Assembly (NCBI GenBank): GCA_965235115.1
Contig: OZ249436.1
Span: 3,536,001 to 3,600,000, forward strand
Reading direction: 5' to 3'
From: Laetmonice hystrix
Lineage: Eukaryota
Length of the DNA: 64,000 bases
Made by a program: the position numbers and the translations under genes. Of this stretch, positions 43,237-61,824 are shown one piece after another (the stretch's first letter is position 1; every line of letters begins with the position of its first letter). Below the pieces are notes generated by a model. The model saw only the letters and a list, made by a program, of their open reading frames with translations. It was not told the origin of the DNA and did not search any database.

Positions 43237-46200
43237 GTGAGTATAATTCACTTACTACGAGTGGCTCGTGTCATGACGACACGCGGGAGGCAGCAGCCAA
43301 GGGGTTGATTACGACCACGGCACATACTGCGGGAGGCTATACGCCGTACTCCAGTCTCTCCATGCCAGGGAGGCTGGCAGGGGCTGCAGCAGGACTAGCT
43401 GGGAGGCTGCCTGGGAGGGGCTGCAGCAGGAGTACTAGCTAGGAGGCTGAGAGAGCTGCAGCAGGACTAGCTGGGAGGCTGCCTGGGAGAGGCTGCATCA
43501 GGACTAGCTGGGAGGCTGCCTGGGAGAGGCTGCAGCAGGAGTACTAGCTGGGAGGCTGAGAGAGCTGCAGCAGGACTAGCTGGGAGGCTGCCTGGGAGAG
43601 GCTGCAGCAGGACTAGCTGGGAGGCTGAGAGAGCTGCAGCAGGACTAGCTGGGAGGCTGCCTGGGAGAGGCTGCAGCAGGAGTACTAGCTGGGAGGCTGA
43701 GAGAGCTGCAGCAGGACTAGCTGGGAGGCTGTCTGGGAGAGGCTGCAGCAGGAGGAGCAGGAGGACCGAAGGAGTACTGATCGAGACTCACTAATTACTC
43801 CATGCACTACTGTAATTAGATCTACAGACCGACCTTTAATTTGATATCGTGATTTGCACTATAAACACATTTTTTTATCACCGACTGATATAGGAGTTCA
43901 CATAAACAATTTTGCAACCAAATACTAAACTGGTTTAGAGTAATATTATAAAAAAAAATTCTAGTCTAGAACTTGGGCTGTGCAGGCTGTGGGCATTCCA
44001 CATGCAGCTTAAATATCCACTGGCGGATCCAGGGGGATATAGTATCAACATTTACTTGATTCTTGTCCAGGAGGCCTTGGTCATTGATACAGGGCAAATC
44101 TATGAATATTATAGCTGATAGAAACAGTCTGAAGTAGGCCTACTCGCGTTTCCAAGGGTTGTGTGGGGTTATCACCAGTATAGTAGACCTATGATCGGGT
44201 ACGTCCGTACCCGAGTTGACCTTGGCTCAGGTCAGTAGAACGCGGGAAGACTTGCGTACAGACGATATCAGACACAGAGAGTACCCGTCCCAGTCCCAGT
44301 ACTCAGCTTGGGCGAGACCTGTTACAGACGATATCAGACACAAACTACCCGTCCCAGTCCCAGTACTCAGCTGGGCGAGACCTGTTACGATATCAGACAC
44401 AAACTACCCGTCCCAGTCCCAGTACTCAGCTTGGGCGAGGCCTGTTACGATATCAGACACAGAGAGTACCCGTCCCAGTCCCAGTACTCAGCTGGGCGAG
44501 ACCTGTTACAGACGATATCAGACACAGACTACCCGTCCCAGTCCCAGTACTCAGCTGGGCGAGACCTGTTACAGAAGATATCAGACACAGACTACCCGTC
44601 CCAGTCCCAGTTCTCAGCTGGGCGAGGCCTGTTACGATATCAGACACAGAGAGTACCCGTCCCAGTCCCAGTACTCAGCTGGGCGAGACCTGTTACAGAC
44701 GATATCAGACACAGAGAGTACCCGTCCCAGTCCCAGTACTCAGCTTGGGCGAGACCTGTTACAGACGATATCAGACACAGAGAGTACCCGTCCCAGTCCC
44801 AGTACTCAGCTGGGCGAGACCTGTTACAGACGATATCAGACACAAACTACCCGTCCCAGTCCCAGTAGGGGGTGTAGAATTATTTTGGTCCTAACGTGCA
44901 CTGGATCGACGCCTGCCAGGAAACAACGTTCACCGTATATTCATCACGCAAAGCGTATAAAAGTCAGGCATAGGGGCCCACTGAGGCTAACTGATCAATA
45001 TTCCTAATTCCTAGCTCTATATTTTAATCTTTTTTAAAAGCTCCAGTCGGATTACAATTAAGGTATAGGGGCCTATTCCCCCCCCCCCCCAAGGCAAAAA
45101 AAATAGTTACGTTTCTTGTCCTTTCATATAAAAGATTTGGGGCGGTGACGCGGGTTTTATTTCATCTTTATTTTTTTTTTGATTCAACCAGACAACGGCC
45201 GATTGCAATTGCTGTTGGGTACATGAAGAAATCTTAAAGAAAAAACTAATCTTTGACGTCACAAACGATAACAAAATTCATCCACCAGTTTGACGTTATA
45301 GATAATTAATTAGTCCCGGAAGCCCTGAGCCACTACCCGAGGGCCAGAGTGCGGCCCTATCTGTTCCTACGTATTTGACCATTTTGGTCGAGTATACTTT
45401 ACTCGAAAATTGTTGCACGCCAGATGTTAAAACTCCCTGGTTAGAGGGTCAGAGCTTCTCGGACTATATGTTATAGGTCTACCGTTCTTCTGGTCAATAA
45501 TATACTTATCATGCACTGTCTCTCTGGGTAGACCAGAGCCAACGCAGGCCCTTATGTGAAGGACAGATAGGGACATGGGACATTCACGGGAGAGTTTGAA
45601 GACATCTGGCTTCAAGAAAGCCCCCTCGAAGGCAGATTCTTTGGCCCTACGCTCTTATTCAACTATGTTAGGAAAAAATAAAATTGGGATATTTTGATAG
45701 TTGACTATAGACGATCCGGAAATGTCATCTAACTTCCTGTCGGGTTAGCACAGATGTTATGCTGTCGATTTGACATCCGATTTTTTGTTTGTTTCCCAGA
45801 GCCATGCATCTCCGAAGGGCGACAATGCTATTTAGAGAGATGAGAGTAGAATCAACTAAAGATTTTGAACGCTTTTCGTTTTCCGCTTTCCCTGTGCGAT
45901 ATACTGCCGTGAAATGACAAAAGGAAGCAAGTCCAAAAGTTCAGGTTTCGAGAAATGGACATAAACAAGTTGTCTCTACACTAGTCGCACTTGGATGGAC
46001 GTGCTTCATTCTGTCATGTGACTGATAGCTTCATAGAAGGATGTTTAGCAGAAATACACCCTTCATTGATAGATAGGACTTACTTCCCTGAATCCAAATT
46101 TACACTTAAGTCGATTTTGATGAAACTTGGACTTGCTTCCTTTTGTCATTGCACGGCAGTATATGGGACATGCAGTTCGACCGCACGTTTTAATGAGCCA

Positions 46201-49200
46201 GAAAAAAGGCGGGAGCCGAACACCTGTTGCCATTGTTGACGTCCTTAGCGGCCGGAAATAAATCGTTTCTCTCTCGTACTGACCGTGACATGCATGTAGT
46301 TTTATTTCGGCTGTAGACGTTTCACTTGGATTGCCTTACCTTTAATGATAAAATTTTTCTTTCAATTTAGTTTTAATGGAAATTGCGTAAGATAGCTAGT
46401 CAACTATAATTTTCTTATTTAAATATTGATCTGGAGCCACCGGGTCTGTCGTGCGGACGTGTACTACGATATTCAACTGGTCAAGACTGGTTTTGACCGG
46501 CATCCTGGGGAGGAGGGACGCTATAAGTGCTAAGTAGCAGCAGCCGTCGCCTGCAGCAGTCTGAACGGCTTGTCGTGGATGGGAAACGTGTGCTTGTCGT
46601 GCCCTCAGTCTCGACAGGAGTGTGAATATTGTCAATAAATCAATGCTATTAGGAACCCATCAAATAACTGGCTCCCAACTCTTGCCAGCAATAACTGGCT
46701 CCCAACTCTTGCCAGCAATAACTGCCTCCCAACTCTTGCCAGCAATAACTGGCTCCCAACTCTTGCCAGCAATAACTGCCTCCCAACTCTTGCCAGCAAT
46801 AACTGGCTCCCAGCTCTTGCCAGCGGTTCGGGACCCCGCCCCCCTTGGCCCCACCGCATGGTAATTCACAAGAAGACAATCGATCGCTCGGATCCTGGAG
46901 ACGTGTACTACCGTAGTACAGTATGCATACTACCATAGTGTGTGATTTATGTTAGATGCACGGGCATCAGGCCCAGTTATGTCCGGAAAGATGACTGCAC
47001 TTACCAGATTACTGCACCCATTCACTGTGTGTGTGTGTGTGGGGGGGGGGGGGTGTTGGGGGGCCGGGGGGCTGCAGAAAGGGCATGGTCAAGGGGGTGC
47101 AACTAAACTCAGCTAGAGGGCAGAATATTGCCCCCGAAAAGGGTTTTTAAACGCCACTTAATTTGTCCATTACTATCCTCAAATTAGGTATATACTTCTT
47201 CTTCAAAGCCTATATTGGAGGCATGGCGTATAAGTAATGATAGGGGGTAGATTATCATTGTGTGAGGCAGGAGTAGATTGTGTGAGGCAGGGGTAGATTG
47301 TGGGAGGCAGGGGTAGATTGCGAGAGGCAGGGGTAGATTGTGAGAGGCAGGGGTAGATTGTGAGAGGCAGGGGTAGATTGTGGGAGGCAGGGGTAGATTG
47401 TGGGAGGCAGGAGTAGATTGTGTGAGGCAGGGGTAGATTGTGGGAGGCAGGGGTAGATTGTGAGAGGCAGGGGTAGATTGTGAGAGGCAGGGGTAGATTG
47501 TGGGAGGCAGGGGTAGATTGTGGGAGGCAGGGGTAGATTGTGGGAGGCAGGGGTAGATTGTGGGAGGCAGGGGTAGATTGTGAGAGGCAGGGGTAGATTG
47601 TGGGAGGCAGGGGTAGATTGTGAGAGGCAGGGGTAGATTGTGGGAGGCAGGGGTAGATTGTGGGAGGCAGGGGTAGATTGTGGGAGGCAGGGGTAGATTG
47701 TGAGAGGCAGGGGTAGATTGTGGGAGGCAGGGGTAGATTGTGAGAGGCAGGGGTAGATTGTGAGAGGCAGGGGTAGATTGTGGGAGGCAGGGGTAGATTG
47801 TGGGAGGCAGGGGTACGTAGATTGTGAGAGGCAGGGGTAGATTGTGGGAGGCAGGGGTACGTAGATTGTGGGAGGCAGGGGTAGATTGTCGGAGGCAGGG
47901 GTAGATTGTGAGAGGCAGGGGTAGATTGTGAGAGGCATGCAGGGGTAGATTGTGGGAGTTCCTGGAAAGTGGAATCTACTCGGCGCTATACCTAACGCCC
48001 CCGGTAGATTCTGGGAAGCCCATGGCTTCGTTTGGATATAGAGCCCAAACAGGGTAATATTGTATCTTATAGTGAAACGGCCCCTGCTCTTTTAGGCTGC
48101 TCTTGGATGCCTGGTAGATGCCATTATTAGTAGGTCCCTTATTCACTTTTCACGAGTTCTATCGTACGGGGGGTTCCTACGACATTCCAGAAGACTGCGT
48201 GTAGCAGAAGGACGAGGTTGAGCTGGTCAACTATATGAAGTTTATTCCAGTTCACTTTCCAAGTTTTTGTACAATAACATGAGTAGAGAAGACCACTGTC
48301 AAACTGACCAATGATATGTACACATGTACTGTACAACAGAAAAATGCTGGCTCCCGGTTGGCTAAACCATCACAGCTAGGGCAGGCCACTTTGGGGATTG
48401 TATATTGTTGTTAAAGACAAGTAAGTTGGCACTGGCAGACAGTCTAATGACCCGTGATTATACTGAGGCAGACATCCTGGCACTAGTGAGCTGCTTCACA
48501 GAGGTGGGAAACAATAGGTGAGAAAACACCTGTATTACGGGTTCCCTGTGATGAGCGACTCTGCCCCTATGACTGTACTGCCTTCAACAACTTCCCAAAC
48601 GAAAGCTGGGGAAAACCATCAATGGAGAACATATGTCACCCAAGAGATTATATTGTTTGTTTGCTGGTAGCAAACAATGAATACAAACTGAACATCTGAG
48701 AACGGTGGTTAAATCCTTAATGCACCACCGTTGCAACATGGTTGGTAAATGTCTATAATAATGAACATATAATCTTTCTGGGAGTAAATCAAAAGTACAC
48801 AATTTAAAACTAAAGATAAGAATTGCCTCTGTCGTAAGTTGTTTGTCCATTATTTTGATCAAGGGTAGCCCATAGTTAGACTAGGGGTACGATAGTTCCA
48901 CCATGTTTACACCATGAAGATGGCCATACTCGTCCGTTACGTGTTACAGAGCCCGCTCGGCGATGTGCACAAACCGCAGCGGCGGCCGCTCAGCCCCTGC
49001 ACCCGGCCGAGCCGGAGGGACCGACCATCCGGACCGCCATCCCTGGTCCCCGCTCACAGCAGCTCAAGGACGAGCTGCATCAGGTTCAGGTGAGTCACAT
49101 ACACATTAGCTGCACAGGAACTAGGCCTACTACTGCTCACAGGTGGCAGGTCGCCCTCTAACAGGTAAAAGGTGACAGGTCTCCTGGTTCTGCATGGACT

Positions 49201-52200
49201 GGACGCCGTTGAAAAGGACCCTCTCAAAATTGAAGGAATTAAAAAATGTCTATGGAAGGGAGGGACGCTCTTCGAAGTCTGCGAAAGCTAGAGTACCAAA
49301 TTATCCGCAAATTAAAAAATTAGAGCCGCGGCCTCATAAAGAAATGACAATGGTTCCGCGGGGCCTTCACCTAATGACTAGGCTATATTTCAGGGCTGTC
49401 CAGCAAAGTATTGAGCGGTAAATGCAAATTATGTATTAGGCCGGACATAAAGGCCCACAGAGAATAACTACTATAACACTTGACAATAACCTACATAGCC
49501 CCGGGTCATGTCGGTGCTTAATTAGACTACATTATACATGTAGTTGGTTGGATGCTTTGAGGGTGACAAAGAAAGTGGCCTTTTTACAATATATCTGATA
49601 TAACCAAGGACGAGAGACATATAATCATTGGTATAACTATATATAAACTATGTCACGCCAGTATCACCAGTCATAGTTCGAGCAAAGGAATTCATACAGA
49701 CATTCTATGTTAAATATCAACATTTCTCAGCCCATTCTAGACTATTGAAATCCATTATAATTTTTAAATAGTTATTTTCAGAATGATGTCTGGATTTAAG
49801 GCCAACGGACGCGGAAATAGGGCATAAAATAAAACTTGAAGGAGGTTGAAATAAATATTAACCATTAGTTTTTCAGTCAGTCGCACCTAGACGATAAATA
49901 TCAATAAACAATATTTCCTCTACGAATTCCAATCGAATATTAATTAATTAGTGATGTAGGGATTGTGTAGTAATTATTAATATTAATTAATTAGTGATGT
50001 AGGGATTGTGTAGTAATTATTAATATTAATTAATTAGTGATGTAGGGATTGTGTAGTGATTATTAATATTAATTAATTAGTGATGTAGGGATTGTGTAGT
50101 AATTATTAATATTAATTAATTAGTGATGTAGGGATTGTGTAGTAATTAGATAGTCAAATGGTAAGATGTCTCTGCCTGGTATATATCCTCCGTTAGATGA
50201 CAAAACATAATCATTCACCTGTAACCTATATCACAACCTTGATCTAGATTAGGATTTCGGAGAAACATGTTAGGAGATCTAGATTAGGATTTCGGAGAAA
50301 CATGTTAGGAGATCAGTAGATCAATATACACAGATCTGTTGTATGTCAGTGGGACGACTCACACAGATCTGTTGTATGTCAGTGGGACGACTCACACAGA
50401 TATGTTGTATGTCAGTGGGACGACTCACACAGACATGTTGTATGTCAGTGGGACGACTCACACAGACATGTTGTATGTCAGTGGGACGACTCACACAGAT
50501 ATGTTGTATGTCAGTGGGACGGCTCACACAGAGAGCGGGATTAGTGACAGGGGCGGATCCGAGATTTGCAAGACGGGGGGGGGGTGCTATGGAAAAATGG
50601 CGCTTTCTCAAACGTCCCCCCCCCACCCAGTCAGTAGCCTAAACAGTCAAACTCTCTTATTTCACTCGGCTGATAATGCGCAACGTCTCGATTCCATGAA
50701 GGAAACGTTAAAAATGATATGATGCAGAATTTTTGGTCTCTGTGTTATATCGGGTGGATAAAAAAAAACGCCCCGAACTTTAAACTCCAATATTTCAAAA
50801 AGTTTTGATTGTAATTCAATGAAATTTTTCTTACTATCACTTTATGATGTTGTCTCTTAGTTGTTAATGTTACAACTCAATAGCTCGAATAATATTTCCG
50901 TAGCGCTGAAAACAAAAATCATTGTACAAAAGCGCAATGCCGGGCTAAAGCGAGTGGTAGTCGCACCAGAGTCCCTGGCCTCACACTAGAGTAGGTGGTC
51001 AATCGGTCCCCCGTTTTCACTTCATACTGCTCTCAGTCTCTTTTTACATCGCCAAAGCACTTTCTGATCTATGATAGGGAATTATCTTCCCATTATTGGG
51101 AAATAAGCAGCGTTCTGAACGTGTTGCTAAACGTGATAATGATACGATTTCCCTTAAACTTCTGCTTACAGTCATATCGTCCTAATGTTGCAGTTTCTCG
51201 GTAGGGTTTGGCAAATTAAACATCTGGGTTTCTCTAGAAGTACTAGGAATAGGACATAATTTATTATATCTAGTGGTTCACAACATTATACATATTGTAA
51301 AACATGCAAAAACTAAATATTGAAAATGTTTTTACCCAAAGTACAATGCGGTGCATCAAACAGGTATCAAATTGGACACCTGGCAGCTGCATGATATTTG
51401 ACCTAATTCCGGCATTGTGTTTTTAGACACTGATTTTTGTTTTTAGCGCCACGGGATTAATATAAAAGCTATTGAGCGGAAACTTTAACATACAAGAGAT
51501 AATATCATGAAGTTATATTAAGAGAAATTTTATTGAATTATAATGCAAAGTTATTGAAATATTAAAGTTTAAAGTTCGGGGCGTTTTTTTTTATCCACCC
51601 GATATATCAAGGTTTTCATCTGGCTATATGTGTACAACAGGAAATCCTCTGACTTGATATCATGAAGAATCTCCAACCCAGCAAGATCAGACAATATGTG
51701 ACGGACAGTTGTCACAATGGTTCGTTCAGAGTAGGGGTCTCTGTATAGGTTATCATCTGACTTGATATCATGAAGAATCCCTTTATAAACCCAGCAAGAT
51801 CAGACAATATGTGACGGACAGTTGTCACAATGGTTCGTTCAGAGTAGGGGTCTCTGTATAGGTTATCATCTGACTTGATATCATGAACAATCTCCTAGTA
51901 AACCCAGCAAGATCAGACAATATGTGACGGACAGTTGTCACAATGGTTCGTTCAGAGTAGGGGTCTCTGTATTATATATCAAGTTTATCATCTGACTTGA
52001 TATCATGAAGAATCTCCATGTAAACCCAGCAGGATCAGACAGTGTTTGTGATGGAGAGTATACACAATATGGTTCGTCCGGAGTAGGCCTATATCAAGGT
52101 TATCCTCTGACTTGATATAAAAAATCTCCATGTAAACCCAGCAAGATCAGACAATATGTGGTGGACAGTTATCACAATGGTTCGTTCAGAGTAGGCAGTG

Positions 52201-55200
52201 GCGGATCCAGCAGTGGGGGGGGGGGGGGGGCTTTGGGGGCTTAAGCCCCCCCCCCCCCCAGCTGACTCCAGATTTTTTTTCCACGGGGATTAAATACTCT
52301 CTGTATTCCAATCTTTCCCAGGGTTGACCGCGCCGGTCTCACATGTATCTAGCCCCCCCCCCCCCCCCCCAGTTGCAAAATCCTGGATCCGCCCCTGGGG
52401 ATCTCTGTATTAGGCCTATATATCAAGGTTATCATCTGCCTTGATATCATGAAGAATCTCCTAGTAAACCCAGCAGGATGTGGTGGACATCACAATGGTT
52501 CGTTCAGAGTAGGGGGAGGGTCTACTTGTTGTAGTCAGTGGGCAGTACCACGTAGGCTGCTCGCATTGTGATCAACCGATTTCAACAAGTCGTATTAACC
52601 GCATAACTGATAAAATCAATCATTAAAATGATTTATAAAATGAATCATTAAAATGATTAAAAAGACGCCATTGGAAGCACTTCTCCCCCCAACGTAGGGA
52701 TGAGATTGAAGCAGCTGTCACATAGTTCTACTTGTAGAATCTACTCAGACCTACTCAAACAATAGCCTTGTATTAGTGGGTCAATTGTTTTTGTCTTTCA
52801 GCATTCACAAGCCGTTAATTTCTTCATTGATTATGATAAGAGCCAAGGCAACTACATTGTGGACGCTGATGGGAATGTACTCCTCGACATGTTTACTCAG
52901 ATATCTTCTATACCAATCGGTGGGTCACGTGACTTTAACTTTACACTTCTTAAAACACTTAAATAACTCTTTACATGCAAATAGATGTAATTGTCTGGTT
53001 GTAGGGGGTACTCTGTCTCAGTTTCGGCGAAAGAGGGCCCACCAGTGTGTAATTTGCGGGGGGGGGGGGTCCCCTCTTTTTCCGCGAAGTATACTGCCAA
53101 CATTTCCCACACCCATATTTGTATTTTGACGGAACGTGATAGTATACATGTACCTTTATATAAATATATTTCCATGCATGATTTTATGAGTCACTCTCAC
53201 ACAGAAAAAATGTGTGATTATTTTTTTCAGGATACAATCACCCAGCTCATATAGCGGCGGTTCAGAACCCGGCAAACCTTGTAAGTCATCAACACTTCTT
53301 CATCAGGGATACCTGTTTATTGAACTAAATACAAAACAGGCTACAACGACTCATTAACCTCTGAATCTCCTCTGGTATCCACTATTCCAATAACGCTATA
53401 ACGCAGGTTATTTCATTATTAGACCTCACATAAAATATGACTAATACCTTACATTGAATATGACTGATATCTTTGTCTGCCGCCAGAGTAATTTCATTAA
53501 TTGATCTTACATTCAATATGACACCTTGTCTGTCGCCTGAGTTATTTCATAAGTAGACCTTACATTGAATCTCACTGGTACCTTTGTCTGCCGCCAGAGT
53601 AATTTCATTATTTGACCTTACATTGAATATGACTGGTACCTTTGTCTGTCGCCTGAGTTATTTCATTAATTGACCCTACATTAAATCTCACTGGTACCTT
53701 TGTCTGTCGCCAGAGTTATTTCATTAATTGACCCTACATTGAATCTCACTGGTACCTTTGTCTGTCGCCAGAGTTATTTCATTAATTGACCCTACATTAA
53801 ATCTCACTGGTACCTTTGTCTGTCGCCAGAGTTATTTCATTAATTGACCCTACATTGAATCTCACTGGTACCTTTGTCTGTCGCCAGAGTTATTTCATTA
53901 ATTGACCCTACATTAAATCTCACTGGTACCTTTGTCTGCCGCCAGAGTAATTTCATTATTTGACCTTACATTGAATATGACTGATACCTTTGTCTGTCGC
54001 CAGAGTTATTTCATTAATTGACCCTACATTAAATCTCACTGGTACCTTTGTCTGCCGCCAGAGTTATTTCATTAATTGACCTTACTTTGAATATGACTGT
54101 TACCTTTGTCTGCCGCCAGAGTTATTTCATTAATTGACCTTACACTGAATATGACTGGTACCTTTGTCTGCCGCCAGTTATTTCATAAATAGACCTTACA
54201 TTGAATATGACTGATACCTTTGTCTGCCGCCAGAGTAATTTCATTATTTGACCTTACATTAAATATGACTGGTACCTTTTTCTGCCGCCAGAGTTATTTC
54301 ATAAATAGACCAGCACTTGGTAACTTCCCGCCATTGGAGTGGACCGAAAGGATAAAAAATGCTCTTCTATCAGTAAGTCTACTTGTATATTTTTTTTTTT
54401 ACAAAGTATATGTATTTTATACAGCAGCCTTACGTTGTACAAATTCTTTAAACATATTACATAACTGAACATTTGGTTTGGGTTGAGGAAAGGTGACCTT
54501 GGATAGCGGGTTCAGAATAACCTCGTTACCGTAAAGGCTATTGACAATACACCGATACACAGCAGAAAATATATTTGATGTAATTCTACAAATTCTCTTT
54601 GTTAAACATTCAGATTGCACCGAAAGGACTACCAAGTGTTCAAACCATGGGTTGTGGTACCTGTTCCAACGAAAATGCTTTCAAGGCAGCCTTTATGGCA
54701 TATATGGTAAGTATTGATGACCGATGTTCCTGTTTATGGCTGTTTATGGCATTATGGTAAGTATTGATGAGCGATGTTCCTGGTTATGGCTGTTTATGGC
54801 ATATATGGTACGTATTGATGACCGATGTTCCTGTTTATGGCTGTTTATGGCATTATGGTAAGTATTGATGACCGATGTTCCTGTTTATGGCTGTTTATGG
54901 CATATATGGTAAGTATTGATGACCGATGTTCCTGTTTATGGCTGTTTATGGCATATATGGTAAGTATTGATGACCGATGTTCCTGTTTATGGCTGTTTAT
55001 GGCATATATGGTAAGTATTGATGACCGATGTTCCTGTTTATGGCTGTTTATGGCATATATGGTAAGTATTGATGACCGATGTTCCTGTTACTCTGTGATG
55101 TGTTGCTGTGCTGTGTCAAGAGGTACCGTATACGTTAATTGTCCAGTGAGAGATCGAGAGGTTTCAGTGTGTTGAAACGTTCCTTCTGATCATTAAATCT

Positions 55201-58200
55201 TTGTCTGATAGAGTTTTGTCAGTTGACCGTGCTGATTCTCCCTTACCAGTTTCCCCTCCTGAACCATCCCTCTCTCACCCTTTACAAAATCTTAGATCCG
55301 CGCCAGTTGATATGTTTTTGTCTGTCGGCCAGCGCCGTGAGCGAGGGGGAAAGTTTCCGAGTGACGATGTCCTAGAACAGTGTCTCTATAACCGTGGACC
55401 TGGATGTCCGCCACTCACCATCCTTTCCTTCACCAACGGTTTCCACGGCCGCACGTTAGGTCAGTCTGTTATTTATCATCAGTCAAGACTAGTAACCCAC
55501 ATTTTAAGCGAGAGTTCACTCTGAATGTAAGCATCAGTGAAACAAAGTAGGATTTGTATTTGTATAAATTTAATGATTATATAATTTATCTCATATAACC
55601 GGTACGTCAAAATATTTTGAGGTTATGTCATAAATGTAGGTCAGTCACCTTCAGTGCATTTGTTCAGACCTATAGGCCTACAGCCGCACGACATATTTAA
55701 TGGTCATATTTAGGCCTACGTGCGTTATGTATCAAGCGTGTGTGTCTGGGGGGGGGGGGGGGGGTGTATGTGCTGGAGTTTGCGAATGTCATTGTATTTC
55801 AGGGTTCTCCATAAGATAAACCAATAGTACTAGTAGCCATTTTTCTGCCTTGATGTCGAATGTTGAGACATTATATATTATAAGAAAGAACCACAAATAG
55901 AGATTGCACTATGGAATATATGATATGATATGATAGCGCAGTAATGATAGTGAAGACCGTATTATTAAGTGAAAGAATATAAATGAGAATGAGACACATG
56001 AGTTTCCATTTGTACGATTCCGTTATCCGTTTCCGTTATTCGACCATCTGTGCCCATTTCCTATGGGAGCGTTTCCATGTGTAGGCCTACGCTTCGTAGT
56101 CCGATTGTAGGCCTACATATAGAAATGCTCCCATAGGAAAAATGCATATCGATCGAATCGGAGACGGATAACGGATAACGGATAACGGAAACGTACACAT
56201 GGAAACGCGGCTTAATCATATCTTCAATAGATTAAGCAGAACAGTTCCAAGTTCCAGCTAAAACCCATACTATACCAGTAGGCCTATCAGTCATACAGTT
56301 ATTCCCTATGGTAGTTGTATTCAAAACTTCATTTATTGCTTATACCATATCGTTGTAATATAAACAGGGAACGCTGACGCAGGATGTTTTCCTATGCCTA
56401 CTTAGTACTATATATGTTTGTTCTCTTTAATTGTTTAGTTTATTAAGATTTCTTTATGTGTAGGTAGCCTAAGTGTGACCCACACCAAATGGATACATAA
56501 AATCGACATCCCACCGTTTGACTGGCCAATCGCGTCTTTCCCTGGTTATAAATACCCGCTGGAAGATCACGTAGAAGATAACAGACATGAAGATCAGCGT
56601 TGTCTTAATGAGGTAATCCGATCCGTGAGCTCAGGTTAATCCTTACACAGACTGTGCTGACACCTGGTGACAGCTTCAAGTAATATGTTATTTTTGTTCA
56701 ACACAGGATTGTGTTGGAATTTCAATGGAATGACTTCCACTTGTCATTCACGTGAACGAATGACTAGACCCTCCCTAGACTTTACTGAATTATTCCATGG
56801 GGCATTAGTAGGAATGAGCACCGGCAGCCAAAGGAAATGTAGCAAAACTCAGCAATGAATGTGAGTGGCTGTCGTCACAGTATGATCGTCGCAAAAGGAC
56901 AATGCGAAAAACTTATCGACTAAACAAATTTCTGTCTGAAAGTTTTAGATTTAGAAGTTATCATATCCTGTCGCACTATTATAAGACTATGATTTGTGAT
57001 TCCCATTATACTGCAGCGCAAAGAAATAATTATAGTCAAGAATAAGAATCTTTCAGATAAGTTTTTTTATCCGAATTTATTAAGCATGACTCGAGTTAGT
57101 AAACTAAAATTAATTTGGTCTGACGTAAAATGGAAGGCGTCTTATTAGACAAGAAGTGCTAAGAAGACGTTGGAATATCTCGTAAATTTAGCTAGTTATA
57201 TTAGTATATTACATGCATGTTCCAGCCTTACAGGCCTACACCTGGCACTTGTTCCTTACGATATGCACAAACTTTTATTCTAAGTCTGGATATAACTATA
57301 TGACTCAGGGCAGTTTATAAGACTTTGTATATTTGCTGTTTATCATTCAGGAATGACAAAGTATTTTGTCAACAAATAAGACAGCTAAAAAAATTCAAGT
57401 AGTTCTTATTGGTACTAGCCTACAACGTATGACGTCGGTAAGGTATGAACGCGAGACAAATTTTTCACCATTTTTTTCTGCGTCATTTGTACATATAGGA
57501 TCTCTCGCAACCTCTCACGCTAGGTGGCAGTACAAGCTAGATAGCCCGACCTTGGATTGGCCTGAAGCTGTGTTTCCCACTCTGAAATATCCGCTCGACC
57601 AATATGAACAAGAAAACCGTGCCAGTGAGGAAAGATCTCTCAACGAGGTACATAATAGTCAGCAAGGTTCTGTTCGTTATCAGACTATACTCACTCGATG
57701 TCGGAAACTTCACCAGGCTCACGGCAGGAGGAACGAGACACGAGATATACCGGCCATGGAAATTTGGGCATCATTCAGGAAATATTTGTAACTGGTGGAA
57801 TGAATTTATTCCTATAAAATCTTCCATCCATGCCACGCTGCTGATGCAGTGATGGAAGATTTTATACTCGTGTAAAAATTTCAACGATTTTTTGTAGGCT
57901 TGCTGACACGTTGACTTGGCTGTGAGTGCATTGTATATATATTATATGTAGTGGCGTGCTTTCTGGTCCTATTTCTCAAAATCAATGACTTTCTTACATC
58001 GGTGTGGCTTACCTGAGCATTGTCAAACCATAGAACTGTAATATGCGAACTTTAGGTAGTGAATTTAAATTACTTGAAGGCATTTTATCAGTCTGTAATA
58101 TCGTTCAAAAAGAAGGAATTACACATTGCTCAGCAAAAGTAAAATACTTTAAATATGTACCTTTGTTATCACCTAGTAGTATGTGCACGCTTGTTTTAAT

Positions 58201-60985
58201 TGACAAGTGTATCTTGCGGTCAGCACTGTTATACTTCACCAAGGGGAATATATACTACTTGTGTAACATGCCTACGACCACTTAAATTGATCTTTCTAGG
58301 TGCGAGAGAAAATTGCCGAGTACAACAGTCGGGGAACTCCAGTGGCTGGAGTAATTGTAGAACCTATCCAAGCCGAAGGTGGAGACAACTATGCCTCATC
58401 CGAATTCTTCCATCAACTGCAAAAAATTATCAAAGAGGTAAGACAGTTAAACTTAATAAAAACCGGGTATATTTGTCAAAGATGAAGGTTTTACAACTGG
58501 CCTGACGGGCATCTTAAGACGGCCAGTCAAACAGGTGGTACGTACATGCTCCACCCCCAACCCCACCCATAGTCCTCTTGGTGTTCCAGAACAACGCCTA
58601 CCTCATCGTTGACGAGGTACAGACGGGTCTGGGTGCCACGGGTGAGATGTGGGCCCATGAACACTGGAACCTGCCCCAACCACCTGACGTGGTCACCTTC
58701 AGCAAGAAGGCACTCACAGGTGGCTTCTTCCTCACTGACGAACTCAGGCCACTCGAGGTAATCCCTCAGACAGATGTTGGGGTCTAAACTGACAACTGGA
58801 CAATTAACACCGTCTTGGTACTATATTTAGGCCTACTTATTGATTACTAATTTGATTACTACGGATGCTCATAAGTACCGAAAATTTGAGTACTTGCAAG
58901 GTTAGACTTGGTTGTCACTTTAGAACAGCAGAGTCTCAAATCAGCTATAAACACCTACATTTCCTTGGCTTGGAACAACATGAGACTTCTATGAATGGAA
59001 CGGCATCTGAAAATGTTCTTCGTGTCAGTTTAAGTATAGTCTACAGCTAATAAAAACATTGCACTTATGTTGAAATAACATTGGTGCAATATAGATCTAA
59101 GTATAGGTGAGGATATACCATAATATTTGTATTGTCCTCTAGGGCTTCCGTATCTTCAACACGTGGATGGGTGACCCATCCAAGGTGTTGCTACTGGAGG
59201 AAACCCTGAAGGTAATCAATGACAATGACCTCATCCAGAACGTGCGCGATGTCGGCAAGGTCATCATGGACGGCCTGCGACTGCTGCAGGTCAGTAACAA
59301 ATAGAGGTCATGTCGGAGGTAGTGTAGGAAGATAGGTCCAATCATGTCATAAAGATAAACCTTTCTGTAACATTTTCAGAACCATGTTGGCCTGTTTTTC
59401 TTACCAGAGCGGTGTGTGATAGCAATTAACAAAGTCTGTTTCAATTTGTTGTTACACTGTAAAACTTGCAGTGGCCTATACCGGCAATTGCATTTAGTAT
59501 TAAGGTTTTGCTTGCAGGCAGTAGGCCTATACTAAAGGTATGTAGTGAATTATATGCAAAAGAAATAGCCTACATTGCCAGATAGGCCCTCGTCCTGTAA
59601 GACTTGAGCCGCTTTCACATGCACACGGTTTGCAGCGTGCGGCATGCGGCGTGCGTTTTTGTTAATAATGTAGCCAATGTAAATCGCCGCACACCGCAAA
59701 CTGGGGGCATGTGAACGGTTATATCTATTTTCAGTTGTTCCATTTCTGCAAAAACGCACGCCGCATGCCGCAAACCGTGTGCATGTGAAAGCGGCTTTAT
59801 TTGTTCAAAATTGTATTTGTTCAATTGTACAGCGTGTGTAATAAGTTTTGTGTATTTACAGGACCGTTTCCCAGACCAGATCAGCAAGGTGCGAGGATGT
59901 GTAATAAGTTTTGTATGTTTACAGGACCGTTTCCCAGACCAGATCAGCAAGGTGCGAGGATGTGTAATAAGTTTTGTATGTTTACAGGACCGTTTCCCAG
60001 AGCAGATCAGCAAGGTGCGAGGATGTGTAATAAGTTTTGTGTATTTACAGGACCGTTTCCCAGACCAGATCAGCAAGGTGCGAGGATGTGTAATGAGTTT
60101 TGTGTGTTTACAGGACCGTTTCCCAGACCAGATCAGCAAGGTGCGAGGATGTGTAATAAGTTTTGTATGTTTACAGGACCGTTTCCCAGACCAGATCAGC
60201 AAGGTGCGAGGATGTGTAATAAGTTTTGTATGTTTACAGGACCGTTTCCCAGAGTAGATCAGCAAGGTGCGAGGATGTGTAATAAGTTTTGTGTGTTTAC
60301 AGGACCGTTTCCCGGACCAGATCAGCAAGGTGCGAGGATCTGGAACGTTCTGTGCCATGGATGGCAGGGACCCCCAGCACAGAGATAAGATAGTGGCAGA
60401 GATTCGCAACAGTGGTACGTTACCAGCCTTGATTCTTGTTAACGTTAGATTCACAACAGTGGTACGTTACCAGCCTTGATTCTTGTTAACGTTAGATTCA
60501 CAACAGTGGTACGTTACCAGCCTTGATTCTTGTTAAAGTTAGATTCACAACAGTGGTACGTTACCAGCCTTGATTCTTGTTAACGTTAGATTCACAACAG
60601 TGGTACGTTACCAGCCTTGATTCTTGTTAAACGTTAGATTCACAACAGTGGTACGTTACCAGCCTTGATTCTTGTTAAACATGTTGGCGGAATAGAAGGA
60701 GAGGGAGATAATGAACTCTCTCGAGGCACTCCTCTCAGTAACCATCCTAGTCAGCAAAAAATCGGCATTAATGTTTAGGCTCTTTTAAATACTTTTATCT
60801 TTTCACAAAGAACTTGCACAAAGATTATTTCGCTATTCCTAGGTTTTTTTCTGTCTGTTCCAGGGGTTCATATTGGTGCGTGTGGGGTCAAAACGATACG
60901 TATACGGCCGACACTGATTCTGCAAGAAAAACACGCCAACATTTTCCTTAATACCTTCGAATCTGTGCTGGAGAAGTTGAAGTAG
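43191..60985 (+). CDS. ABAT: 4-aminobutyrate aminotransferase (GABA transaminase), mitochondrial, 496 aa; two predicted isoforms
   Basis: Exons 43191-43236, 48950-49089, 52802-52919, 53231-53280, 54292-54372, 54614-54706, 55333-55459, [56464-56612 OR 57499-57647], 58300-58437, 58590-58757, 59143-59289, 60303-60414, 60864-60985 = 1491 nt, open to TAG. Motifs [59 protein letters not shown] (PLP lysine), [10 protein letters not shown]. Confidence 0.96.
43366..43755. repeat. Minisatellite (ctagctgggaggctg...gcagcagga), ~32-39 bp variants
   Basis: Direct observation; ABAT intron 1. Confidence 0.93.
44258..44866. repeat. Tandem array, ~56-65 bp unit, ~10 copies
   Basis: gatatcagacacagagagtacccgtcccagtcccagtactcagctgggcgagacctgttaca. 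Confidence 0.95.
46663..46823. repeat. Minisatellite, 27 bp unit, 6 copies
   Basis: aataactggctcccaactcttgccagc. Confidence 0.95.
47243..47957. repeat. G-rich minisatellite, 20 bp unit, ~35 copies
   Basis: ggggtagattgtgggaggca. Confidence 0.97.
48950..49089 (+). CDS. ABAT: ABAT exon 2
   Basis: [27 protein letters not shown]; ttacag / GTGAGT. Confidence 0.92.
49937..50147. repeat. Tandem array, 43 bp unit, ~5 copies
   Basis: Direct observation. Confidence 0.93.
50327..50530. repeat. Tandem array, 36 bp unit, ~5.5 copies
   Basis: acacagatatgttgtatgtcagtgggacgactc. Confidence 0.93.
50748..51604. mobile_element. ~857 bp Tc1/mariner-like MITE, copy 2
   Basis: TA-flanked; colinear with and highly similar to 39785-40640, same orientation. 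Confidence 0.9.
51645..52512. repeat. Diverged tandem array, ~110-125 bp unit, ~6 copies, interrupted by a MITE
   Basis: tctgacttgatatcatgaagaatctcc...aacccagcaagatcagacaat...ggttcgttcagagtagg. Confidence 0.88.
52196..52397. mobile_element. Short GC-rich MITE (CAGTGGCGGATCCAG...CTGGATCCGCCCCTG)
   Basis: 15 bp TIRs; interrupts one unit of the surrounding tandem array. Confidence 0.8.
52802..52919 (+). CDS. ABAT: ABAT exon 3
   Basis: [40 protein letters not shown]. Confidence 0.94.
53231..53280 (+). CDS. ABAT: ABAT exon 4
   Basis: [17 protein letters not shown]; polyT-cag / GTAAGT. Confidence 0.93.
53447..54310. repeat. Tandem array, ~58 bp unit, ~15 copies, containing the acceptor of ABAT exon 5
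   Basis: ...ggtacctttgtctgccgccag/agttatttcat repeated. Confidence 0.96.
54292..54372 (+). CDS. ABAT: ABAT exon 5
   Basis: [33 protein letters not shown]. Confidence 0.93.
54614..54706 (+). CDS. ABAT: ABAT exon 6
   Basis: [37 protein letters not shown]. Confidence 0.94.
54692..55089. repeat. Tandem array, 50-51 bp unit, 8 copies, containing the donor of ABAT exon 6
   Basis: Donors at 54707, 54757, 54808, 54858, 54909, 54960, 55011, 55062. Confidence 0.96.
55333..55459 (+). CDS. ABAT: ABAT exon 7
   Basis: RRERGG...[21 protein letters not shown]. Confidence 0.94.
56001..56211. mobile_element. Palindromic MITE remnant
   Basis: gtttccatttgtacg..tccgttatccg / cggataacggaaacgtacacatggaaac inverted arms. 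Confidence 0.65.
56464..56612 (+). CDS. ABAT: ABAT exon 8a (mutually exclusive, canonical-like)
   Basis: [50 protein letters not shown]; gtgtag / GTAATC; 149 nt. Confidence 0.92.
57499..57647 (+). CDS. ABAT: ABAT exon 8b (mutually exclusive, divergent)
   Basis: [50 protein letters not shown]; atatag / GTACAT; 149 nt. Confidence 0.88.
58300..58437 (+). CDS. ABAT: ABAT exon 9
   Basis: VREKIAE...[19 protein letters not shown]...IIKE. Confidence 0.95.
58590..58757 (+). CDS. ABAT: ABAT exon 10
   Basis: [26 protein letters not shown]...DVVTFSKK...RPLE. Confidence 0.96.
59143..59289 (+). CDS. ABAT: ABAT exon 11
   Basis: [20 protein letters not shown]...GLRLLQ. Confidence 0.95.
59607..59796. mobile_element. 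Harbinger-like MITE
   Basis: TIRs agccgctttcacatgcacacggtttgc / gcaaaccgtgtgcatgtgaaagcggct. Confidence 0.82.
59835..60339. repeat. Tandem array, 63 bp unit, 8 copies, containing the acceptor and start of ABAT exon 12
   Basis: Acceptor AG ends at 59861, 59924, 59987, 60050, 60113, 60176, 60239, 60302. Confidence 0.97.
60303..60414 (+). CDS. ABAT: ABAT exon 12
   Basis: [20 protein letters not shown]...EIRNS-G. Confidence 0.93.
60400..60680. repeat. Tandem array, 47 bp unit, 6 copies, containing the donor of ABAT exon 12
   Basis: agattcacaacagtg/gtacgttaccagccttgattcttgttaacgtt. Confidence 0.96.
60864..60985 (+). CDS. ABAT: ABAT terminal exon 13
   Basis: [40 protein letters not shown] (TAG TAG). 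Confidence 0.94.
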
Positions 60986-61824
60986 TAGCGTCCTCTGAAG
61001 GATGTGGATGTCTGAAGGCCGGGCAGGGATATGAAACTCTTGTATTCTCCCAATATTATCATAATTATTACGGGACATGATAATGGAAGGCTGTTCCTGT
61101 AAGCTGAGGACACACCACAGAAGGTGTGTTTTAATGTGCAGGGCTGAACCTTGTGAGGCCCAGGCTTCATTCATGGTAAAAATGTATAACGCAAGGAGCT
61201 GGAGGGATTTCATGACGTCAGGTGGTGACGTCATAATGGGACTCGTTCGTCAATATGACGTGTTTTATGCTGCAATATGAAGTGCTACGTGCCAGGTACA
61301 GCAGCTCCGGTGTAAAAATGATTTCTGCGTGGAAAACGAGTAATGACAAATCAGACCAAGAATAGGGTCAGACACGGGGTCCATTTGATGCCAGCATTTG
61401 TTTCTGCTGAACGCTAATATTTGCCAAGTATTCCTATAGAATCATTGAAAATAAAATACAAGTCTGCTCATCTGATAGGCCTAATACAGTTTCTGCACTC
61501 GTGACTTGGAAGCATGTATGAAAGTCGAACAGTACGGACTAGAGACTACTGCTGTTCTTTGCTAGTATTTTATTACCATACCTCATGATGCTCTTGACGA
61601 GTTCTATAGGATGGAAATTCTTGCCATTTTCCTGACTGAGTAGACTTAGGAGTTAATTTTCTATTGTTAAAAATGCCCAAAATATGTTCTTGTTGGTTTA
61701 TCTGTTAATGAGTGGCACATTCTGTAGTTTAAGGGTCTTTTAAAGGTCTTTGACTAATAATTGTGATTTGGTGAAAATGTATACCGGTTCTCTTTTTTTG
61801 TAATTGTATGCATTAGTTTCTTTA

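Follow-up and report, generated by a model that had tools for sequence, protein, structure and literature searches.

In a 64,000-nucleotide stretch of the Laetmonice hystrix genome (contig OZ249436.1, positions 3,536,001 to 3,600,000; hereafter the window, with positions counted from its first letter), the gene for 4-aminobutyrate aminotransferase (ABAT, GABA-T) was found to carry two homologous versions of its eighth exon, here called 8a and 8b. Based on exon geometry, reading frame and codon-position analysis, the two versions probably form a mutually exclusive pair that arose by tandem exon duplication and of which one is used per mRNA, and a probability of about 0.7 was assigned to this reading. 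ABAT degrades the inhibitory transmitter 4-aminobutyrate (GABA), accepts beta-alanine and 3-aminoisobutyrate as well, and is targeted by vigabatrin.

The two exons lie next to each other, 886 nt apart, between the exon ending at 55459 and the exon starting at 58300. Both are 149 nt long, are entered in phase 1 and left in phase 0, and are bordered by AG and GT (56462-63 and 56613-14 for 8a, 57497-98 and 57648-49 for 8b). In each exon the first two bases complete the Gly codon begun in exon 7, and 49 open codons follow from the third base. The translations were aligned by BLASTP without gaps, with 23/49 identical and 34/49 similar residues (E = 4e-19 for a single comparison), a similarity that on this alignment is far beyond chance. 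Residues 197-244 of pig GABA aminotransferase (1ohv_A) were matched by 8a with 62.5 bits (E 1.5e-16) and by 8b with 42.6 bits (E 3.2e-10), and in tblastn both exons were matched by the same query residues in 11/11 ABAT proteins. These results confirmed the original prediction, made from the letters alone, that the exons are equal in length and phase, have AG/GT boundaries and align gapless and stop-free; the peptides given there span no more than the first part of either exon and match the beginning of its translation. The 627-Mb assembly contained exon 8 in these two copies and no others (the third match, E = 2.36, was noise), and the most conserved ABAT exon, 58590-58757, was present in one copy in the genome. 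The pair is an exon duplication within a single-copy, mitochondrial-type ABAT gene.

Probable exclusive use and maintenance of exon 8b

The joined gene model was used to follow the reading frame through each combination of the two exons. When one of the two was included, whichever it was, the frame ran on through 466 codons as far as the natural stop. When both were included, a stop was reached 13 codons into 8b, 63 residues after exon 7, and with neither a stop was reached 53 codons after exon 7, the exon that ends in FHGRT. The early stops arise because 149 nt do not make up whole codons, and the predicted frame shift on including both exons or neither was thereby borne out. In exons of such lengths, exclusivity is usually enforced by a frame shift. 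Each pre-mRNA would be expected to keep exactly one of 8a and 8b, and transcripts with both or neither, being frame-shifted and stopped early, would be removed by nonsense-mediated decay or yield no enzyme.

The simplest mechanism would be splice-site competition combined with removal of the frame-shifted products. The 886-nt intron is long enough to splice, so that steric exclusion is not the mechanism. Competing RNA structures were also sought, and no support for them emerged: 25 inverted-repeat pairs were found, the long ones belonging to a repeated palindromic element, and the whole-intron duplex energies, a global and crude measure, did not differ from those of dinucleotide shuffles (z -0.51, 0.71 and 0.32; n = 30 each). 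The palindromic element, which resembles a miniature inverted-repeat transposable element (MITE), lies in the intron before 8a (56002-56206) and contains inverted repeats, one of 34 nt (91% complementarity) and one of 30 nt (93%). Its bins had a summed contig depth of about 1,000-2,000, compared with about 50 in unique sequence from 56609 onward. A partial copy, 71% complementary to it, is present upstream of 8b at 57232-57265, and base pairing between the two copies could place 8a in a loop.

Whether 8b has been kept as coding sequence was evaluated by comparing the two copies. The DNA identity of 8a and 8b was 75/147 (51%), distributed over the first, second and third codon positions as 28/49, 35/49 and 12/49; the third positions were randomised and the second well kept. 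The proportion of synonymous differences (pS) was 0.98, which is saturated, and that of nonsynonymous differences (pN) was 0.36. The 100-nt flanks on either side of the two exons were no longer alignable. The saturated synonymous sites and the unalignable flanks indicate that the duplication is old enough for neutral similarity to vanish. Exon 8b nevertheless contained no stop and no indel, and both of its splice signals were intact. Among the 19 columns conserved at 85% or more in 244 other sequences of the segment, 8b keeps 16/19 and 8a 18/19. Neutral decay was simulated from 8a in 20,000 runs per setting at 0.3, 0.5, 0.75 and 1.0 substitutions per site; at the lowest setting, 0.035% of runs ended with an open frame and at least 16 conserved columns, and at the three higher settings none did. 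By these comparisons, purifying selection has acted on 8b as protein-coding sequence through most of its history. Judged by codon positions and conserved columns, 8b is not the decaying pseudo-exon that would have refuted the original prediction.

Several observations weigh against the use of 8b. The set of conserved columns was gathered with 8b as query and may favour it slightly; this bias is small, since 8a and the pig enzyme are conserved at those columns too. The selection analysis measures the past, and a recent loss of 8b use may be compatible with it. The 8b donor, GTACAT, lacks a G at +5, and the terminal branch of 8b was about twice that of 8a (0.56 vs 0.30); judged from the sequence, donor and branch fit relaxed constraint as well as specialisation. 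A search of public runs with 8b (149 nt, 12 sampled words) returned 3 runs, none of them recorded as RNA, and the contigs of these runs on 48800-61100, which are DNA from one sample, cover introns and contain no exon-exon joints. In the protein libraries, no 8b-bearing protein or close relative was found by the word-indexed search, in which 0/8 candidates scored, and the exhaustive 8b search gave 265 matches at E <= 0.001, none above 65% identity and the best at 62-65%. Word-indexed protein searches are too insensitive for 49-residue queries: that with 8a scored 1/3 candidates, a wasp ABAT, and found no 8a-bearing protein of the own species. As the own-species 8a protein was also missing, this organism is probably not represented in the libraries.

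The distribution of the exon in other organisms counts on the same side. Oysters had one exon-8 version in 14/14 listed motif-bearing members (15 of the 43 in the cluster were listed), and a second exon copy was found at 0/80 metagenome ABAT loci, the best 80 of 163 confirmed matches, of which only 27/80 had at least 1.5 kb on both sides and many probably came from intron-poor organisms or transcripts. The single version in oysters and the 0/80 metagenome loci indicate that the exon duplication is not general. One exon-8 version was likewise found in two hemichordates, and two isoforms of Ptychodera flava had the same exon-8 segment.

It is unlikely, though the most serious of the alternatives, that 8b is an unused relic of an exon 8 duplication, whether it once functioned or never did, and that the gene makes only the 8a enzyme. 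Such a relic would agree with the run search that listed no RNA, with the lack of an 8b-bearing protein in the libraries searched, with the greater divergence of 8b (42.6 vs 62.5 bits to pig GABA-T, and the longer branch) and with its alteration at 3/19 family-conserved columns. A copy of such age should however resemble the surrounding intron, which lost all similarity, whereas 8b has 12/49 third and 35/49 second positions in common with 8a, contains neither stops nor indels and retains its splice signals; its state is reproduced by neutral decay in at most 0.035% of the simulations, and the selection tests would miss a loss of use only if it were very recent.

Much less probable is a role of 8b as a regulatory poison exon, joined with 8a to give a transcript targeted to nonsense-mediated decay and so lowering ABAT output. 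The stop 13 codons into 8b when both exons are included, and the 886-nt intron, which would permit 8a-8b splicing, suit such a role. A poison exon needs no amino-acid conservation, however, and 8b keeps 16/19 conserved residues in a frame that is read only without 8a; in addition, the isoforms of the nemertean Lineus longissimus described below show the exon swapped, not added.

The contigs of 3/3 public DNA runs (one sample) were continuous over 56177-56828, which contains 8a with introns, and over 56886-58503, which contains 8b and the next exon, so that the arrangement is not a local misassembly; contig differences numbered about 12 in the 1.6-kb contig, and the finding of none inside 8a or 8b among 40 of the 70 listed is uninformative, with about 1 expected per 149 nt. 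An assembly artefact, in which a paralogue or haplotype was collapsed or mis-joined, is hardly credible, given these spanning contigs, a DNA identity of the copies (51%) far beyond haplotype divergence, and a gene that is otherwise single in the genome.

The frame of 8b is open for 144 codons (57357-57791), 47 before and 48 after the exon, compared with 66 codons for the frame of 8a. At the local base composition about 7% of codons are stops, and 95 extra open codons correspond to a chance of about 1 in 1000. The flanks of the 8b open frame had no Pfam match, and the long frame may be a chance seen after the fact.

Putative substrate-gate segment and its versions in other organisms

Under the preferred reading of a mutually exclusive pair, the choice between 8a and 8b would exchange the segment that corresponds to pig residues 196-244 (49 residues), which starts four residues after Arg192 of FHGRT. 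This Arg, which we take to be the ligand of the substrate carboxylate, is carried by exon 7 and precedes pig chain position 197 by 5 residues. In pig numbering, 8a keeps K203, I205 and H206, while 8b has K203R, I205Q and H206Y, in agreement with the Lys and His expected in 8a and the Arg and Tyr expected in 8b at positions 203 and 206. Towards its end, exon 8b also carries Ser in place of Cys in the RCL motif, and its replacement residues occur in single exons of other organisms among the matches. In a docking study on pig GABA-AT (PMC5137336), Lys203, Ile205 and His206 were among the ligand contacts, together with Ile72, Glu270 and Phe351. These contacts are weak evidence, and they fit an entrance-lining position of residues 203, 205 and 206. 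The swap would alter three residues of the pocket entrance (K to R, I to Q and H to Y) and leave the core that binds pyridoxal phosphate (PLP) unchanged. Because the changed residues sit at pig K203, I205 and H206, a difference between the isozymes was inferred, and most likely, judging from the sequence, the gene makes two isozymes that differ in their substrate gate. The earlier claim of two isoforms from one gene stood in its structural part, with two intact frame-compatible exons in a single-copy gene and one usable per productive mRNA, while the part on isoform function, a possible difference in substrate preference, kinetics or inhibitor sensitivity, is an inference; stability is a further property in which the isozymes may differ.

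A parallel was found in Lineus longissimus, for which four ABAT isoforms at NCBI, X1-X4 (XP_064636245.1, XP_064636255.1, XP_064636262.1 and XP_064636272.1; 504, 502, 502 and 502 residues), fell into one cluster at 90% identity. The NCBI pipeline builds alternative isoforms from transcript alignments. When aligned, X1-X4 were identical except for the segment from after FHGRTMG to ...CL.E, just before IRALVEEYN. By this alignment, the variable segment is the exon homologous to 8a and 8b, with the same boundaries, and the same ABAT exon is thus annotated, as far as database proteins tell, in four mutually exclusive versions in a second spiralian phylum. The two cases share the gene, the exon, the split Gly codon at its start and phase 0 at its end, and in both the differences cluster immediately downstream of the substrate-binding Arg. 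They differ in the number of variants, four in Lineus and two here, and one Lineus variant is 2 residues longer; moreover, X1 and X2 change residues that 8b keeps, such as a 99%-conserved Asp and the Leu of YPL.

Comparison of 8a and 8b with other sequences was used to approach the age of the duplication. The identity of 8a was 35/49 (71%) to wasp ABAT, 31/49 to hemichordate ABAT, 31/49 (63%) to Lineus X3 and 23/49 to 8b, so that 8a resembles the single exon of other phyla more than it resembles 8b. Among 151 proteins scored against both exons, 136 scored higher with 8a, 13 with 8b and 2 were ties; the 8b-leaning proteins were single-exon open reading frames (ORFs). In a FastTree phylogeny of 247 rows, 8a grouped with Lineus X3/X4 and apart from 8b (supports 0.81-0.88). 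In a better-modelled IQ-TREE phylogeny of 46 chosen rows no branch was strongly supported, and a clade of 8a and 8b was not rejected by the approximately unbiased (AU) test (p 0.427). These data fit an ancient duplication, and they also fit a lineage-specific one followed by faster evolution of 8b; the duplications in Lineus and in the present gene would be either shared or independent. Three single-exon ORFs of the libraries, P0073, P0083 and P0114, located on different contigs, are exon versions that share an unusual DFPQADWP and differ elsewhere; they may represent alternative exons within a single species, or orthologs from related ones.

Structure of the ABAT gene and associated repeats

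One ABAT gene was identified in the right-hand quarter of the window, on the plus strand. A total of 13 coding exons were placed between 48994 and 60985 (Table 1), with an AG acceptor at 13/13 and a GT donor at 12/12 exons that have a downstream intron. All 11 ABAT library proteins (11/11) matched the gene exon by exon in tblastn, in 9-13 stretches each and at 43-58% overall identity; for the subset of named animal ABATs the identity was 50-54.5%. The FHGRT motif and the DEVQTG and TFSKK segments are present, as in ABAT-type class III PLP aminotransferases. The query with exon 58590-58757 (exon 10) retrieved 1535 proteins, and PF00202 was found in all of the best 120. When searched alone against Pfam, the 8a ORF matched Aminotran_3 with 16.5 bits, below the cut-off of 30.5 as expected for 49 residues, and the 8b ORF gave no match.

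Table 1. Exons of the ABAT gene and the intron between 8a and 8b in the window
Feature	Position	Strand	Basis and remarks
First ABAT coding exon seen	48994..49089	+	tblastn, GT donor at 49090; 3' end firm, 5' end provisional
ABAT exon, 118 nt	52802..52919	+	AG/GT, open frame in joined model, tblastn
ABAT exon, 50 nt	53231..53280	+	ORF list, tblastn, joined model
ABAT exon, 81 nt	54292..54372	+	tblastn, joined model
ABAT exon, 93 nt	54614..54706	+	tblastn, joined model
Exon 7 (numbering of the original prediction)	55333..55459	+	Ends FHGRTL + first base of Gly codon, phase 1 out
Exon 8a, 149 nt, canonical-looking version	56464..56612	+	AG/GT, pig GABA-T match
Intron 8a-8b, 886 nt	56613..57498	+	Splice boundaries, joined model
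Exon 8b, 149 nt, divergent version	57499..57647	+	AG/GT, pig GABA-T match, selection analysis
Next constitutive exon, 138 nt	58300..58437	+	Phase 0 in, VREKIAEYN...; tblastn, joined model
ABAT exon, 168 nt, DEVQTG...TFSKK	58590..58757	+	Joined model, single genomic copy
ABAT exon, 147 nt	59143..59289	+	tblastn, joined model
ABAT exon, 112 nt	60303..60414	+	Joined model; both splice junctions within minisatellite arrays
Last ABAT coding exon, including TAG stop	60864..60985	+	Joined model

At the 5' end, the ABAT frame has no in-frame ATG in the ORF 48880-49161 upstream of the donor of the first exon, and an ATG-led, presequence-like peptide is present in another frame of the same DNA (48880-49089). 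The start may be supplied by an upstream exon or by a frame change at 48880-49089; no indel was found there among the differences listed for the DNA contigs.

Repeats were observed at several places in and near the gene. Both splice junctions of exon 60303-60414 are inside young minisatellites (59835-60339 and 60400-60678). The first has a 63-nt unit in 8.0 copies with 96% matches, composed of the last 27 nt of the intron and the first 36 nt of the exon, and its units are in frame and largely open (ORFs 59715-60257 and 60258-60479); the second has a 47-nt unit in 5.9 copies with 97% matches, composed of the last bases of the exon and the donor. Very high-copy repeats were located in ABAT introns at 50444-51676 and 59486-59896, where the summed contig depth was 23,000-390,000 compared with about 50 in unique sequence. 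Upstream of ABAT, long coding-looking tandem arrays were found at 44195-45007 and 47184-48091, with several frames open on both strands, and these are probably minisatellites.

Comparison with known alternative exons

In those parts of the literature on mutually exclusive exons and tandem exon duplication in ABAT and aminotransferases that were available, no paper with a second exon-8 version was found, vertebrates included. The suggestion that the arrangement is undescribed for ABAT thus held for the literature searched, and failed for the sequence databases, where the four Lineus isoforms are deposited. It is possible, as a tentative extension, that the substrate-gate exon is a recurrent or ancient hot spot of tandem duplication in spiralians, and that splicing switches the substrate range or kinetics of an omega-aminotransferase between tissues. 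If so, exon choice would do what other lineages do with separate enzymes for GABA, beta-alanine and other omega-amino acids. If one gene does offer two natural versions of the 49-residue segment, or four in Lineus, they would provide ready-made experiments on the role of the segment and would show invertebrate GABA metabolism to be tunable by splicing.

With pig and human GABA aminotransferase (1ohv and related entries), 8a and 8b can each be aligned from end to end, at residues 197-244. Mutually exclusive exons in enzyme genes are known from exons 9 and 10 of pyruvate kinase PKM. Exons 7a and 7b of mammalian ATE1 are likewise described as mutually exclusive exons derived from tandem duplication in an enzyme gene (PMC7797038). 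As in ATE1 and PKM, adjacent homologous exons of equal length would swap one segment of one enzyme encoded by one gene. Exclusivity in ATE1 is achieved via competing intronic RNA structures, whereas in ABAT the frame shift and early stop would suffice; and for ATE1 and PKM expression and a functional difference have been shown, whereas the ABAT pair is known from sequence alone. Exons 5a and 5b of the sodium-channel SCN-alpha genes were reported as an old duplication with unannotated alternative copies in distant species (PMC12772994). They resemble the ABAT pair in that few residues are changed at a functionally sensitive place, and differ in belonging to another protein class and in their documented cross-phylum conservation, compared with two spiralian lineages for ABAT. 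The ABAT pair is probably a new case of a well-known kind, tandem exon duplication with mutually exclusive use, and involves no new principle.

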